This document shows positions 120 to 36,100 of a stretch of DNA of 64,000 nt, one piece after another. The DNA lies in NCBI GenBank assembly GCA_009991965.1, contig JAACWQ010000005.1, positions 22,700 through 86,699 of the forward strand, in the 5' to 3' direction. Position 1 is the first letter of the stretch. Each line of letters opens with the position of its first letter. Origin of the DNA: Minisyncoccota bacterium. Its GTDB lineage: Bacteria; Patescibacteriota; Microgenomatia; UBA1400; PJMF01. The position numbers were made by a program.

Positions 120-3100
120 TTAGGCAATCCAATAGCCCTGAATAAAAAGTACGCTGTTGTAGACTAACAAACTAAGGCTGAGGCAGAGTAGTAGTACTCG
201 AGCCATTTTATACCGATTGAGAATTTGTGCCCAGATGAAAAAAAGTGGGAAAGCGACGAGCAAATATCTGGGCATGCTCGACAGTGTGCCGGTCAGAGTC
301 GGAAGCAGCACGGCGCCAAGTGTAAAAACAAGCCAAGAAAGTGGAAGCTTGAGTTCAATTCTTTTCCAAAATCCGTATGCAATGGTACAAACTGCCAAAC
401 AGGTCAATACAAATTCTTGAAAATAGGTCAGCCAAATTCGGCTCATCGGTACGGTCAAAATAATTTTTAGCCCTCTCCAAACTGTTTGAGGTAAGAATAT
501 TAGTGTCTCTTGTCTGCCAGAGCCAAACTCTGATTGCACATGGAAAAAATACAACGGATCGTGGAACTCAGATTGCAAAAATGCCATAAATAAGCCTAAG
601 CCGGTCAGGGAGAGTAAAAAATAGAACAAGACACGCGCTGAGATTTTTTTTGTTTGTAAAAAAATCTCAAGTAATAACGCTGGCAAAATAAACACGCCAA
701 CCAAACGAGTCGAAATTGCTAAGCCAGTAGCTAGAGCAGCCAGTGGCCAAAGCTTTTTTTGGGCTGCTAAAAATGCACCGGTAGTGAAGAGTAAAAAAAA
801 GCTTTCTGAGTAGATTGCCCCAAAGAAAAATGAGGTGGGAAAAAGTAACAATAAGCCAATGGTGAGCCAAGTGGCTTTGTCAGAAATTCTTTGCCGTACG
901 AGTTTGTATAAGAAGTAGACGGCAAAGCTCAGAGCCACAAAATTCAAACCTACAGCAACTACTGTGTGAGATATACCAAACGAAATATACTTGACGATAA
1001 AAGGGAATGCAGGAAAAAAAGCTTGAATCAATCCCGTGCCAACGTAGCCCATTCTCATAATGGTAAGGTAATGTACGCCATCAAAGTTGGCCCATGAGTA
1101 GAGCCATTGCGGTAGGCCTAATTTGGCTAATAGATCGTAGGCATATGGAAAGCTTGGTTCGTAGGAAATGAATGCGGGGGCGATGAGACTTACAACGAAT
1201 AAGCCTATTCTCCAGACAAGAACAAGTACGAGAATTTTTTTGAGAAGTGATTTATCCACGAGGCTTCCTCATTGCAAAAATCAGTACACCAAAAGAAATA
1301 AGTGAGACCGCATTACCTATCAATCTGGCGGGAGTATTTTGGGTGAATAGAGTCATGACTTGATACGAGCCCGCAGGAAGCTCGTAGGCAATTCTGCCAG
1401 CAGATACATCATTGTGAATGTAGGAGACTGTTTTGTTTACTCCATCTTGGAGTACTGTGGTTTCCCAACCAGGGAAGTTCATGGTCGGTTCAATAATCGT
1501 CGTCTCAGTAGTTAGTAAAAGTGTATATTTTCGTTTACTACCGTTCCATGATTGAACCGTTATGATGCCCGCATCGGGCTGCAATAGTGTTGGTCTTGGT
1601 TGCCAATCGCCAATATCGGCGTACGTAAATTCTTTGGTTCTGTTTTCGTTTTGAGTACTCGTGCTTTGAGAAAAAACAGCATAGTCTAGGTTTGTTTTAT
1701 GAAAGTAGTCTATTGGCGAAAGTCGCAGCAATGAAATTACTTGGAATAAAAGAAGCACTACGAGTAGCCTCAAAATCAACTTACTTTGACCCAATAAGAA
1801 CACCAAGCTTGGCAACAAGAGTGTGACTGTAAAAAGACTCAGACGCCAGGGAAACTGGAGAAAATGCAACGCTGGCACGAGCTCCCAAAGCGACTTACTC
1901 AACGATAATTGACCTACAACAGTCAGGCAAGCAAGCACAAACAACAATAAGAACGGCCCAGCTTGTGCCAATCGTTGGCGAATAAGCAGCGAGGTGCCAA
2001 CTCCCAGTAAAACCAGAATTGCAGGCAAACCAATTGCAAATGAGAGCGAGTCAACCCCGCCTAAGTAAGAAAAACCAAAGCGCAGAGGGCTCCAGAGCAA
2101 TTGACTCAAGGTTACAAAATGAGCGGAAAATTCTGAGACAAGCGATGCGTCGCCAACTACTACACTCGACATCTCTGCAAGCGCAGGTAACCAAAACCAG
2201 AGGCTCAAGCCGATTGCCCAAATTACTACTGCTAGGCTGGCTAGCAGTTTTTGTTTTGAACGATAGAAAAGTGCTAAACAAAGGACGATATATATGCCAC
2301 TCCCGACTACCGCCGAAATATTATGGCTGAGTAAGAAAGCCGTCAAAATGCCTACTCCAAACAGAGTATGACTTGACCTGAAAGTTATTTTTTTCTTGGC
2401 TGCTAGTGAATATGGTAGCCAAACAAGCCATGGTAGCAAGGAAAGAGCTAGAATTTCGCCGATATTGCCGCGAAAATAAATGGTTGAGACGAGATATGGC
2501 TGCAACAACCAAACAATCACACTCAACCAACGCACGTTTGGACTTGCTTTGAGAGTTTTTGTTAGTTGCCAGACTCCTCCAGCGCCAAATAAGACACTAA
2601 TTACTACTAGTAATTCAAAAGTAGTCTCGTACGAAACACCAATAAACGAGAATGGCAGGGAGAGAATATTTGCTAGGGGATAGTTGTAATTAAAAACAGG
2701 ATATCCATAGTGATTCATAAGATTTGGCGCAAAACGTGGTGGAATCTGCCCTTCTCTGAGTGCGATTTTGTAATTGGCAAACCGAGCTAGGTGATTTTCG
2801 CCATCATGTGTGTAAGGAAACTGGGAGTTGTAGTACAAATGGAACAGCGAGAAGAATGTTGCTGCGGCGAAGACAAAGAGGAGGAAGCGTTTCACAAAAG
2901 TGCTCTTTCGTATGCCGCAATGGTTGCTTGCGCAACTTTTTTCCAGGTAAATGTCTGACTCCAGGCTAAACCCTCGGCTACTAATTTTGTTCTATGGTCA
3001 TTTGTTAGCTCACTTACCAAAAGCACTTGCTCCGCCAGCGACTCTGCAGTTGGTTCACCGTAGAATACAAGCTCGCCACCAACCTCTGGCAATGAGCCGA

Positions 3101-33100: not shown

Positions 33101-36100
33101 TGCAATTCCCCAAGCTTCACTAACGGCGCCGCGAATAAACAGATTGACAGCTCGATACGGCGCAAGTGTTATGGCAGCCGACAACAACACGCCACCCAAT
33201 GAACCAAATAATCGTCTTCCTAAATAATACGCACCCACAACAGTAAGAAGGTTTGCGAGAAAGAAAATGCTCGAAACTGAAAATATAATTGATCCGCTCA
33301 ACCAAAATACCACTCCCCCAAAATAGTAGGGCAGAGGAGCATAAAATAAAAATAACGGCATGCCGTAGCCATAGCCGAAGTTCTTACTCCACTGCGGTGG
33401 AATGTGCCCATCTGCAACAGCTCGAGTCATCTCTGCAATCCGTGCTCCATGGGTAAAATCATGCACGCGAAAAAACCCAGAATGCAGCAATGGCCAGCTA
33501 CTGGCGAGTAGAATAAGTAGAAGCGCGTTAGCGACGAGTAATCTTCTCATGTATGATAAAGTTCATTGTAACTCAAGAGTATGAAACCAGTCACTCAGCA
33601 AGAACCAACTAACCTCAAAGAATTCTCTCTCGCCACTGTCGCCGTCAAGGCAACTGCTCTCGCAATCGCGTTTGTAGTGGGTTCACTTTTAGTACTCGCG
33701 CTCGTTGCAGCAGCCTTCGGTTACCGCTATTTGCAAAAAATTGGCAATGCAAGTAATCACAGCCCACAAGACTTGATTCAAATTGCTAAAACAGCGGCGG
33801 CCGTTGCTCCCAGAGAGAATAACCCTGTTTTTCTCATTCTCGGCACAGACTCACTAACAACAAGGGGTGATATTCCTCCACTCACCGACACAATGTTACT
33901 TGCGTCACTTGATTTAAAAACTGGAACACTGCATCTTTTGCCATTGCCGAGAGATATCTGGAACGAAGCTTACAAAACAAAAATCAATGCTCTCCTCGCT
34001 TACGGCATCGAGCGCTACCCAGAGAAACCTGAGCAATTTCCAGAGGAAGTCATAGAAGAAATGATTGGCATCCCAATAGATTACACAGTTGTAGTAGCCA
34101 TGGACACCCTAGCGGACCTCGTTGACACGCTCGGCGGAGTAGCAGTTTCTGTACCAACCAGCTTTATCGATACTGAGTTTCCTAATCCAGATGTTGATAT
34201 CACAATAGAGCGAGATCCAAAGAAGCTGTATAAAACTGTTTCATTTTCAAAAGGCACAGAAACTATGTCTGGGCAACGCTTTCTTGAGTTCATTCGAAGT
34301 CGACATAGTGACTCGGAGGAAGGCAATGATCTTGCCCGCTCCCAACGGCAACAAATTGGCTTTGCTGCTTTGCTTCAAGCAGCTACGCAAGAGTCTGTCG
34401 TAAAACAGCCCACCACTATTGGCAAACTCTTTGCTTTTTATGAATCAGCATATGTCACAGCACTCCCACTCAACGACATTGCCGCAATTGCAAAAGCAGT
34501 AGTAGAAAATTCTGTCTCAAGCGTTACGATAGATTCACGCACACTAACAGTTCGGCCCTCAGTCAAAGACGGCGTACTACTGCACCCAGATGCGAAAAAA
34601 ACAAATAATATTTGGCTGTATCAGATCACGGACGAAAAATTGTTTCGTGAGGAAGTCGGCCAAGCTCTAAATAAACTATAAAACATGAAACAACCCATTG
34701 AGCCAAATCGAATTATCCAGTTTTTAATGATAATAATAATACTTTTGGCACTATTTGCTGGGTACTATCACGCCCTCTACCAGACAGAAGTACGCAAAGC
34801 CGAAGAGCTTCGACAGACACAAATTGATATACTACCTACATCAGAATTATGAGCATGCACCCACAATTTCCACTAACAGTACTTGTGACCGGTGGGGCCG
34901 GTTTTATTGGCTCCAATTTTATTCACTACTGGCACAAAAAATATCCTGATGACCGTATTCGTAATCTTGATGCACTAACCTATGCTGGAACGCTCGAAAA
35001 TCTGCGTGACATCGAGTCTGACACAAGCTATTCATTTTTACATGGTTCAATCACCGATAAAGAATTTGTGGCAAAGGCAATGGAAGGTGTGGACTATGTT
35101 GTTCACTTTGCCGCAGAGAGTCATGTTGATCGTTCAATTTTAAATCCACAAATTTTTCTCGACACAAACATTATTGGCACCCAAGTATTACTCGATGCTG
35201 CTGTTACCCAACAAGTAAAACGTTTTCACCACATTTCGACTGACGAAGTGTTTGGTACGCTCGAACTTGGACACCCTGGCAAATTTACTGAAAATACACC
35301 GTATAACCCGAGAAGCCCCTATGCCGCAAGCAAAGCCGGCTCCGACCATCTCGTCCGAGCCTATGGAGAAACATATGGACTTCCCTACTCAATTACAAAC
35401 TGCTCAAATAACTATGGTCCAAATCAGTTTCCAGAAAAATTGATCGCGCTTGCAATTACAAACGCTCTAGAAGGCCGTAAAGTTCCTGTATACGGTGATG
35501 GCATGCAGGTCCGCGACTGGTTATTTGTGCTTGATCACTGCTCAGCAATTGAAAGCATTCTTTTGAGTGATCAGCTTAATACCACCTTTTTAGTTGGCGG
35601 CGAGACAGAGGAAACAACCAATCTTGAGGTCATCAAGTATGTTTTGAAATCAATGGACCTTCCAGAAAGTAATATTGAGTACATTTCTGATCGACCTGGA
35701 CACGACCGCAAGTATAGTGTCGACTGGTCGCATATCAACAAAACACTTGGCTGGAAACCGAGCGTCACACTCCAAGAAGGCTTGACTAAAACTATCGAGT
35801 GGTACCGAGCCAATGAAGCTTGGTGGCGCCCACTCAAAGAACAAAATAAAGCGTATTTCACAGCACAGTATCAGGATAGGAAGTAAACAAAGGAGAAGTA
35901 ATGGAAATTCATAGTGATATAGCGCCAAAAGTGACTCGACAAAGTTATGAAAAAAAACCAAAAATTGATGGGGTTGAGCTTGTTTCCCTAGCAGTTATGC
36001 AGGATGACGGCGGCTACTTTGCCGAATTAGCTCGTCTTGATGCAGGCAATCTTACAGCTTTCTCTACTCCAATCTCTGTCAAACAAATTAGTCTCTCCCA

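Follow-up and report, generated by a model that had tools for sequence, protein, structure and literature searches.

Between positions 120 and 34681 of a 64,000 nucleotide stretch of a Minisyncoccota bacterium genome (GenBank assembly GCA_009991965.1, contig JAACWQ010000005.1, positions 22,700 to 86,699 of the forward strand; hereafter 'the window') lie 26 tightly packed open reading frames (ORFs), 16 of which encode polytopic membrane proteins that can be classified, from their sequences and predicted structures, as glycosyltransferases of the GT-C superfamily rather than as transporters. These 16 ORFs occupy 120-25916 and 31892-33550, reproducing the gene content reported in the initial annotation of the region, which had described fifteen large polytopic proteins in the first 26 kb and one more at 31892..33550. 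The proteins are 379-590 amino acids (aa) in length, not 470-590 aa as stated there, and the genes form five strand blocks (-, +, -, +, -) in place of the four head-to-tail operons originally described. Within a block, adjacent genes overlap or are at most 16 bp apart; the G+C content is approximately 40-45% along the whole region, in which no DNA-level repeats were found.

The host is a member of the Candidate Phyla Radiation (CPR)/Patescibacteria from a groundwater setting. The protein encoded by g16 (Table 1) is identical to NCN82824.1 and PIR61298.1, both labelled Candidatus Pacebacteria/Paceibacterota, a taxon that NCBI now assigns to the phylum Minisyncoccota. One of the polytopic proteins, g14, was found residue-for-residue in 10 contigs, including those from JGI samples 3300008255 (a 103.7 kb contig) and 3300025150, Logan runs, an ENA assembly and NCBI GCA_002772675.1, and the longer of the JGI, Logan and NCBI contigs (16-104 kb) preserve the gene order around it. 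As the array recurs in these independent assemblies, it is not an assembly artefact.

Some differences between strains are apparent: g07 appears to be split into 423 aa and 77 aa parts in SRR6053076, g13 is 546 aa rather than 590 aa long in JGI 3300025150, and the lengths of g17 and g18 differ close to a contig end in another assembly (variant sites L016 5514-7024, L003 2834-4474 and L004 14166-16101). Such variants may represent population-level variation or the inactivation of single GT-Cs. The junctions of opposed blocks (7649-7657, 17878-17895, 22725-22733 and 33550-33581) are very short. By longest ORF, the gaps are 7, 16 and 30 bp at the three divergent junctions and 7 bp at the convergent g16/g17 junction; gene callers place later starts for g03, g06, g11, g12, g18 and g22, and the divergent g13/g14 gap is still 16 bp using their coordinates. 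Promoters of the divergent blocks would consequently have to sit inside neighbouring coding sequence.

Assignment of the polytopic proteins to GT-C families follows from hidden Markov model searches and profile comparisons, in agreement with the original proposal. Hydropathy analysis identified 7-13 hydrophobic segments in each of the 16. Eight of them (g05, g06, g12, g13, g14, g15, g17 and g18), here termed family A, are linked by all-against-all BLASTP matches of 23-32% identity (E values of 1e-8 to 1e-54) and share the signature [DE]E-x…TG-x-D-x2-G…(S)FGD-x-K after the first transmembrane (TM) segment, g13 being without the FGD-K part. The Pfam gathering threshold for PMT_2 (PF13231, 26.1 bits) was passed by g07, g12, g14 and g15 (32-49 bits), and that for PMT (PF02366, 22.7 bits) by g12, g14 and g15; g18 scored 22.3 bits against PMT_2, and g05, g06, g13, g16 and g17, which gave no significant match to this model, join the PMT_2-like set through paralogy and profile-profile comparison only. 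The family A architecture comprises a TM domain of approximately 415 aa followed by a C-terminal soluble domain of 105-170 aa. A profile constructed from family A, g07 and two PMT_2 proteins at 52-57 kb (A1) had a single sequence match in the PDB, to ArnT (5EZM, E 2e-7), and database homologs of g15 carry names such as 'glycosyltransferase family 39 protein [Patescibacteria group bacterium]' and 'ArnT-like'. The clear PMT_2 protein g07 lacks the family A signature, and the 57-sequence family of g16 aligns with A1 (hhalign 96.4%, E 1e-9) such that its invariant EE falls on the DE of the signature. The initial count of ten PMT/ArnT-like proteins therefore stands when g07 and g16 are added to family A, although only eight of the ten carry the signature then attributed to all of them.

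A second group, family B (g02, g08, g11 and g25; 23-29% identity), has the common motif HD..H.AR…G..PP.W…G.P.F, within which H-D…A-R…G..P-P…G.P.F is invariant in the alignment, exactly as had been described for four PTPS-related/YfhO-like proteins. Three of the four pass the PTPS_related threshold (PF10131, 26.4 bits), with g08 unmatched and included as a paralog only; none reaches the YfhO gathering score (PF09586, 28.5 bits), the only score being 25.2 bits for the C-terminus of g25. These proteins are laid out as a TM domain of approximately 400 aa, a soluble domain of approximately 125 aa and a terminal TM anchor, and their profile matches A1 (hhalign 96.8%) with the HD aligned on the DE.

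The other two GT-Cs belong to families that are poorly represented in domain databases. Neither g10 nor its 53 homologs matched any Pfam or NCBIfam model; the family comprises 95 clusters, the named sources of which are mostly of the Microgenomates group (Pacebacteria, Beckwithbacteria and Woesebacteria), and shares the conserved loop 1 motif SDV..DYERY…YEYPP. In AlphaFold2 (AF2) models, g10 and g16 form all-helical bundles for which the only strong structural matches are solved GT-C structures, the best being ALG3 for g10 and ALG12 for g16, at sequence identities of only 7-15%; fold comparison covered these two proteins, the other 14 being linked to the superfamily by Pfam, hhalign or BLAST. 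On the basis of its model, g10 is confidently predicted to fold as an ALG3/PIG-M-like GT-C_B enzyme, and its family could merit a curated model of its own. No match to the PimE-type GT87/DUF2029 Pfam family was found, and the protein formerly listed as GT87/DUF2029-like is instead counted here as this ALG3/PIG-M/PimE-like GT-C_B. Likewise, g01 itself matched no Pfam model, including Mannosyl_trans2 (PF04188, PIG-V), even at an E value of 10, and had only weak NCBIfam matches (AZOBR_p60025, 3e-8; LA_3751/2 putative glycosyltransferase, 2e-6). Its family is large (8009 representative proteins at E<1e-3), and in an alignment of 61 homologous sequences with 33-47% identity, 25 matched PF04188, nine PMT_2 and five GT87. 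The description of g01 as PIG-V-like is thus borne out by its homologs, but as these and not g01 itself match PF04188, it is not a demonstrated PIG-V member. Given that the g10 family lacks a Pfam model and that several PMT_2-like subfamilies are missed by Pfam, standard annotation undercounts GT-Cs in such genomes.

In every GT-C member an acidic motif lies between hydrophobic segments 1 and 2: [DE]E in family A (D39/E40 in g14), HD in family B, the invariant E40/E41 of g16, D30/D34 of g10 and the invariant D60 of g01. Nearly all members have 2-5 positive charges before TM1, and only 0-2 K/R alongside 1-3 D/E in the 15 residues that follow it. This bias, together with homology, points to a topology in which the N-terminus is inside and loop 1 outside, matching all solved GT-C enzymes; the acidic motifs, which had been expected in an extracytoplasmic loop, are all found in the first loop after TM1, and would face outwards.

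The paralogs can be followed across related genomes. In a GTDB species representative (L007, approximately 80% identity) the region is colinear for g07-g22, and in three relatives at 40-47% identity (L008, L010 and L012) most individual paralogs have orthologs, in a rearranged order; the divergent module of LCP, family B GT-C and Wzx genes is kept in L010. A neighbour-joining tree of family A clusters the sequences by paralog, not by genome. Comparison of the window with L007 gave 0.05-0.28 non-synonymous differences per site and saturated synonymous differences (0.72-0.85), with dN/dS below 0.1 where calculable; for the GT-C paralogs g08 and g10-g18 the proportions of non-synonymous and synonymous differences were 0.13-0.28 and, at saturation, 0.72-0.82, and g09 is 91% identical. 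Because the tree groups by paralog and purifying selection is evident, the paralogs appear to be old, distinct and individually maintained, which is consistent with non-redundant, specialised roles. More distant homologs (approximately 30-35% identity, L017 and L018) lie in similar arrays that mix PMT_2, YfhO and unannotated 500-780 aa membrane proteins with GT2, GT4 and Wzx, and a further locus (L019, one protein of which is also recorded in Candidatus Beckwithbacteria) has a PMT_2, g10-like, PMT_2, unknown, PMT_2… series adjoining sugar-nucleotide genes (SIS, GHMP kinase, phosphatase and nucleotidyltransferases), possibly for an NDP-heptose. The occurrence of these three comparable arrays means that the super-array recurs in the Microgenomates-type lineage and is not a one-off. 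The records L008 and L010-L013 bear the titles 'uncultured Pseudomonadales bacterium' or 'Methylococcaceae bacterium' despite their CPR-type GT-C arrays; these titles are at odds with the homologs, which carry Patescibacteria/Microgenomates names, and the records are probably mislabelled.

The supporting genes of the array were largely as first listed: profile matches confirmed five GT2 enzymes (g04, g19, g21, g22 and g23), two GT4 enzymes (g03 and g20), a Wzx flippase and a divergent LytR-CpsA-Psr (LCP) ligase. The Dpm1-type synthase, g09, is retained as a candidate, its best NCBIfam matches (AglJ, 5e-22; PpgS, 2e-17; Dol-P-hexose transferase, 3e-16) all being below their cut-offs. It overlaps g10 by 4 bp, a pairing also kept in L007, and is the one clear candidate polyprenyl-phosphate sugar synthase in the region, against 16 GT-Cs. 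All three component types of multi-component glycosylation systems (GT-A polyprenyl-phosphate sugar synthase, flippase and GT-C) are thus present in the locus, at a synthase to GT-C ratio of 1:16 where such systems are characterised by a ratio of approximately 1:1; the only GtrA domain is in a second cluster of glycan genes (Table 1). Among window ORFs of at least 150 aa, Pfam searches found no priming phosphoglycosyltransferase (Bac_transf, WecA/MraY type or Glycos_transf_4), Wzy polymerase (Wzy_C) or chain-length regulator (Wzz), such that Wzx is the sole component of a Wzx/Wzy-dependent pathway found in the window. Nor did the 64 kb contain rmlA or a PglB/AglB/STT3-type oligosaccharyltransferase with a WWDYG motif, and no candidate gene for an acceptor protein was found in the locus. 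With priming enzyme, polymerase, chain-length regulator and oligosaccharyltransferase all missing from the window, and one synthase for 16 GT-Cs, the claim that the gene set describes a complete pathway was overstated.

Table 1. Genes of the GT-C array, the adjoining rhamnose genes and the second glycan cluster, in window coordinates. Scores in bits or as E values.
Gene	Coordinates	Strand	Length (aa)	Assignment and basis
g01	120..1259	-	379	PIG-V-like GT-C; loop 1 FDGVHY…GY…AFFP
g02	1252..2895	-	547	Family B GT-C (PTPS_related/YfhO-like); PF10131 46 bits, paralog BLAST, motif
g03	2892..4025	-	348 from caller start (~3938)	Cytoplasmic GT4; PF00534 E 2.6e-21
g04	3938..4717	-		GT2, paralog of g21 and g23 (BLAST); PF00535 E 1.6e-18
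g05	4732..6234	-	500	Family A GT-C (ArnT/PMT_2-like); no Pfam hit; paralog of g15 E 2e-41; DE/FGD-K
g06	6231..7649	-	472	Family A GT-C; paralog of g17 E 4e-51; signature
g07	7657..9204	+	515	Distant PMT_2 GT-C; PF13231 45.5 bits; family A HMM E 1e-6
g08	9201..10895	+	564	Family B GT-C; no Pfam hit; BLAST to g25 E 1.5e-33; motif
g09	10892..11608	+	238	Soluble GT2, candidate polyprenyl-phosphate sugar synthase (Dpm1/AglJ/PpgS-like); PF00535
g10	11605..12846	+	413	GT-C_B, family without Pfam model; predicted ALG3/PIG-M/PimE-like fold
g11	12746..14518	+	562 from likely start (~12830)	Family B GT-C; PF10131 28.9 bits
g12	14448..16142	-		Family A GT-C; PMT_2 32.4 bits, PMT 26.3 bits
g13	16106..17878	-	590	Divergent family A GT-C; DE kept, FGD-K lost; BLAST and alignment
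g14	17895..19586	+	563	Family A GT-C; PMT_2 48.8 bits, PMT 25.4 bits
g15	19577..21271	+	564	Family A GT-C; PMT_2 39.2 bits, PMT 26.0 bits
g16	21247..22725	+	492	GT-C_A; no Pfam hit; loop 1 YEELAES
g17	22733..24343	-	536	Family A GT-C; BLAST to g15 E 1e-54; EE/FGD-K
g18	24306..25916	-	523 (likely)	Family A GT-C; PMT_2 22.3 bits (below cut-off); BLAST
g19	25874..26686	-		GT2; PF00535 E 2e-21
g20	26679..27785	-		GT4; PF00534 E 1.4e-16
g21	27767..28582	-		GT2; PF00535
g22	28592..29548	-		GT2; weak rhamnosyltransferase/GlfT1-like matches
g23	29518..30411	-		GT2; PF00535
g24	30423..31895	-		Wzx/MOP-type flippase; PF13440 E 3.8e-47
g25	31892..33550	-	552	Family B GT-C; PF10131 43.4 bits; YfhO C-terminus 25.2 bits (below cut-off)
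g26	33581..34681	+		LCP ligase, N-terminal TM, divergent from g25; PF03816 E 4.8e-26; TIGR00350 above cut-off
rmlB, rmlC-like, rmlD-like	34849..37351	+		dTDP-rhamnose branch; TIGR01181 451 bits (cut-off 365), PF00908, PF04321
Second glycan cluster	52354..61883	-		Separate from the main array; members below
PMT_2 GT-C	52354-53895	-		
MptA-like GT-C	53888-55174	-		TIGR03459 9e-12
GT2	55176-55940	-		
PMT_2 GT-C	55937-57451	-		
GT2+GtrA fusion	57464-58654	-		PgfS/ArnC-like
Gmd	58658-59644	-		GDP-mannose 4,6-dehydratase; above NCBIfam cut-off
SDR epimerase/reductase	59626-60585	-		
Sugar-nucleotide dehydrogenase	60585-61883	-		UDPG_MGDP_dh family (UDP-glucose/GDP-mannose-type)

The locus extends beyond the bounds first given to it. 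The start at position 120 is a mere window edge, as the glycan locus continues for at least 6 kb leftward on the source contig (L014 14611-20780) with an SDR epimerase, a GT2 of 221 aa, a 158 aa ORF, DUF2304, GT2, an epimerase, a GT4 and a UDP-GlcNAc 2-epimerase. GacJ and Rv3632, which assist the lipid-sugar synthases GacI and PpgS respectively, are DUF2304 proteins (bioRxiv 10.1101/180810), and the GT2 and DUF2304 genes are probably a second lipid-sugar synthase pair just outside the window. On the right, rmlB/C/D directly follow the array and are succeeded by housekeeping genes. The rmlC-like ORF (35901-36434, +) matches dTDP_sugar_isom (E 3e-13) and also Polysacc_synt_C (31.5 bits, gathering threshold 28.7), the latter an odd match for a soluble cupin and probably spurious.

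The second glycan cluster brings the number of GT-C genes in the window to 19, 16 in the array and three at 52-57 kb, and may supply extra lipid-linked donors to the main array or make a separate glycan. Between the two lies a van-like set on the minus strand, consisting of an M15 D-Ala-D-Ala dipeptidase (50711-51487), a member of the D-Ala-D-Ala ligase family (49635-50714) and an Asp/Glu racemase (48919-49638), which suggests an altered peptidoglycan stem peptide. It is followed by a tRNA-Gln (51572-51643) and a divergent gene for an OmpR-type regulator whose receiver domain is weak (51669-52340), and a D-Ala-D-Ala carboxypeptidase lies at 61899-62837.

From the enzyme classes, folds, motifs, loop 1 position, paralog age, synteny and selection described above, an order of action can be proposed, along with donors, an acceptor and a product. 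The reading preferred here, to which about an even chance is given, is that these genes encode the central part of the machinery for a complex surface heteropolysaccharide that is anchored to peptidoglycan and has most of its glycosidic bonds formed on the external face of the membrane. The first sugar-phosphate would be loaded on undecaprenyl phosphate by a priming enzyme with its gene elsewhere, and the two GT4 and five GT2 enzymes would then add a short cytoplasmic core, including rhamnose from the adjacent rmlBCD. Wzx would flip this lipid-linked core, polyprenyl-phosphate monosaccharide donors, or both, with g09 and the related synthases just outside the region charging polyprenyl phosphate with single sugars, as their families suggest. 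Each of the 16 GT-Cs might subsequently add one sugar or linkage from a few shared lipid donors, extending and branching the chain outside, in the manner of EmbA/B/C and AftA-D in mycobacterial arabinan synthesis and of ALG3/9/12/6/8/10 in assembly of the N-glycan precursor in the lumen of the endoplasmic reticulum (ER), before the LCP enzyme would transfer the finished polymer to peptidoglycan. In the absence of a Wzy or an oligosaccharyltransferase motif, chain growth would have to come from the GT-Cs; the 1:16 ratio fits many transferases drawing on few lipid donors, and the UDP-GlcNAc 2-epimerase and the GacI/GacJ- or PpgS/Rv3632-like pair just left of the window also favour a peptidoglycan-anchored polymer.

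Several observations weigh against this proposal. The lipid-linked core is hypothetical, as the window holds no priming phosphoglycosyltransferase; the role of g09 depends on below-cut-off similarity; and the topology of the GT-Cs is a prediction from homology and charge bias. The adjacency of the LCP gene is suggestive rather than proof, and the acceptor could instead be a protein or a lipid. Furthermore, five strand blocks and a gene content that varies among relatives allow for more than one product.

Of the surface glycans suggested initially, a wall-linked glycopolymer is favoured by the conserved LCP linkage, and by the same token O-glycosylation of S-layer or pilin proteins is possible but less favoured. 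According to the latter explanation, which is unlikely, the PMT-like GT-Cs would use polyprenyl-phosphate sugars to start and extend O-glycans on secreted proteins, S-layer proteins and pilins among them, with the LCP, Wzx, GT2 and GT4 proteins serving a separate wall polymer. S-layers and pili are present on CPR cells examined by cryo-electron microscopy, and g12, g14 and g15 pass the Pfam threshold for PMT as well as that for PMT_2. However, the only PDB match of the A1 profile is a modifier of lipid A, no acceptor gene accompanies the enzymes, and 16 paralogs are hard to justify by protein mannosylation alone; PMT_2 is, moreover, also the domain of wall-polymer glycosylases such as GacL, CsdD/F and GtsC (PMC8035078).

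It is quite unlikely that the product is instead a membrane-anchored lipoglycan, such as lipomannan/lipoarabinomannan (LM/LAM), phosphatidylinositol mannosides or a glycosylated polymer resembling lipoteichoic acid, built by the GT-C_B proteins (g01, g10 and the MptA-like GT-C of the second cluster) and PMT_2 enzymes on a glycolipid rather than on peptidoglycan. The closest structural relatives of g10, namely ALG3, GPI-MT-I, ALG6 and PimE, all act on lipid-anchored glycans, and homologs of g01 match PIG-V, but acceptors are lipid-linked in the wall-polymer model too, and these matches do not discriminate between the two. The similarity to MptA and the glycosylation of lipoteichoic acid by YfhO-type enzymes (PMC8035078) are also compatible with a lipoglycan, against which stand the adjacent LCP ligase, conserved in position, and the failure to see LtaS, PimA/B-type or anchor-synthesis genes in the window. 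Equally unlikely, finally, is a mosaic of independent small modules, side-chain decorators for different polymers that are possibly variable or serotype-determining, accreted in one genomic island. It would suit the five strand blocks, the second cluster, which has a GT2-GtrA synthase and GDP-sugar genes to itself, the variable gene content and order among relatives and the split g07 or shorter g13 of some strain assemblies. However, in modules already described each GT-A synthase has one partner GT-C (PMC8035078) and not 16, orthologs of individual paralogs are retained across 40-80% identity under purifying selection, and hardly any non-glycan genes interrupt the region.

The proposal of a peptidoglycan-anchored heteropolysaccharide can be taken further, albeit into speculation with little chance of being correct: Microgenomates-type CPR bacteria may run a counterpart of the logic of the ER-lumenal ALG and glycosylphosphatidylinositol (GPI) pathways, in which many GT-Cs would act in succession to mature an oligosaccharide flipped on its lipid carrier, among them ALG3/PIG-M-like and PIG-V-like GT-C_B families unrecognised by domain databases. 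The polymer might then be as linkage-rich as mycobacterial arabinogalactan or LAM, dominate the cell surface, mediate attachment to the host and possibly be attached en bloc to protein in addition to peptidoglycan.

The envelope of CPR bacteria is the interface at which these ultrasmall, host-dependent cells attach to their partners and meet phages, and to our knowledge its chemistry in the CPR/Patescibacteria is almost uncharacterised. At least 40 kb is devoted to one glycan locus in a genome assumed to be approximately 1 Mb, and the presence of 16 individually conserved GT-Cs (19 in the window) implies that the surface polymer is structurally complex to an unusual degree and strongly selected. 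The locus points to an unexplored, evidently important Patescibacteria surface polymer, and offers handles on it in the g09-g10 pair, for identification of the donor, and the LCP protein, for identification of the acceptor.

Searches of the open-access full-text literature found no description of arrays of this kind in the CPR, and comparison is with systems from other organisms. With regard to ArnT (GT83), the sole PDB sequence match of A1, the resemblance extends to the TM domain of approximately 415 aa and C-terminal soluble domain of 105-170 aa, but CPR bacteria are assumed to be monoderm and to lack lipid A, and the window lacks ArnA/B genes except for the sugar-nucleotide dehydrogenase and SDR genes of the second cluster. 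The use of many GT-Cs on few lipid donors, with the chain growing outside the membrane, is a feature both of mycobacterial arabinan and mannan synthesis and of the ER-lumenal ALG series. The ER systems (ALG3/9/12/6/8/10, PIG-M, PIG-V, DPM1 and Rft1) similarly combine cytoplasmic GT4 and GT2 enzymes and a MOP-type flippase with serial GT-Cs acting on polyprenyl-phosphate sugars, and their members are the best structural matches of g10 (ALG3) and g16 (ALG12) and the Pfam matches of g01 homologs (PIG-V); however, with identities of 7-15%, no STT3/PglB-type oligosaccharyltransferase and an acceptor that is probably peptidoglycan via LCP, the likeness is at the level of fold and logic only, and orthology is not claimed.

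The mycobacterial and corynebacterial arabinogalactan and LM/LAM systems (EmbA/B/C, AftA-D, PimE, MptA/B/C and Lcp1) also employ linkage-specific GT-Cs on one or two polyprenyl-phosphate sugar donors, include counterparts of the PimE- and MptA-like members found here, and start from a cytoplasmic, rhamnose-containing primer that is flipped and joined to peptidoglycan by an LCP-type ligase, as is proposed for this locus. They differ in that no genes of the decaprenylphosphoryl arabinose pathway (UbiA-type or DprE) were seen here, in that the enzymes of the CPR array are 380-590 aa long and without the large C-terminal lectin domains of Emb and AftD, and in that genes scattered in those hosts are contiguous in this CPR bacterium. 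In monoderm bacteria, wall polymers are decorated by a GT-A that makes a C55-P-sugar, a GtrA/Wzx-type flippase and a PMT_2/YfhO-type GT-C acting outside, with LCP effecting attachment (PMC8035078; bioRxiv 10.1101/180810). The Gram-positive examples (CsbB/GtcA/YfhO; GacI-J/GacK/GacL; CsdAB, CsdCD and CsdEF; GtsABC) share with the present locus all of these component types, as well as a DUF2304 helper beside a GT2, here just left of the window. By contrast, each synthase in those systems is paired with a single GT-C, no more than about three systems occur per genome and single side-chain sugars are added, whereas here one locus has 16 GT-Cs of four or five families with one clear synthase, and family B passes the PTPS_related but not the YfhO gathering threshold. 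Nothing points to a new mechanism, and the superfamily of every enzyme and the overall logic are already known; what is new is the scale and setting, 16 individually conserved GT-Cs, drawn from four or five families, at a single locus of a reduced CPR genome.

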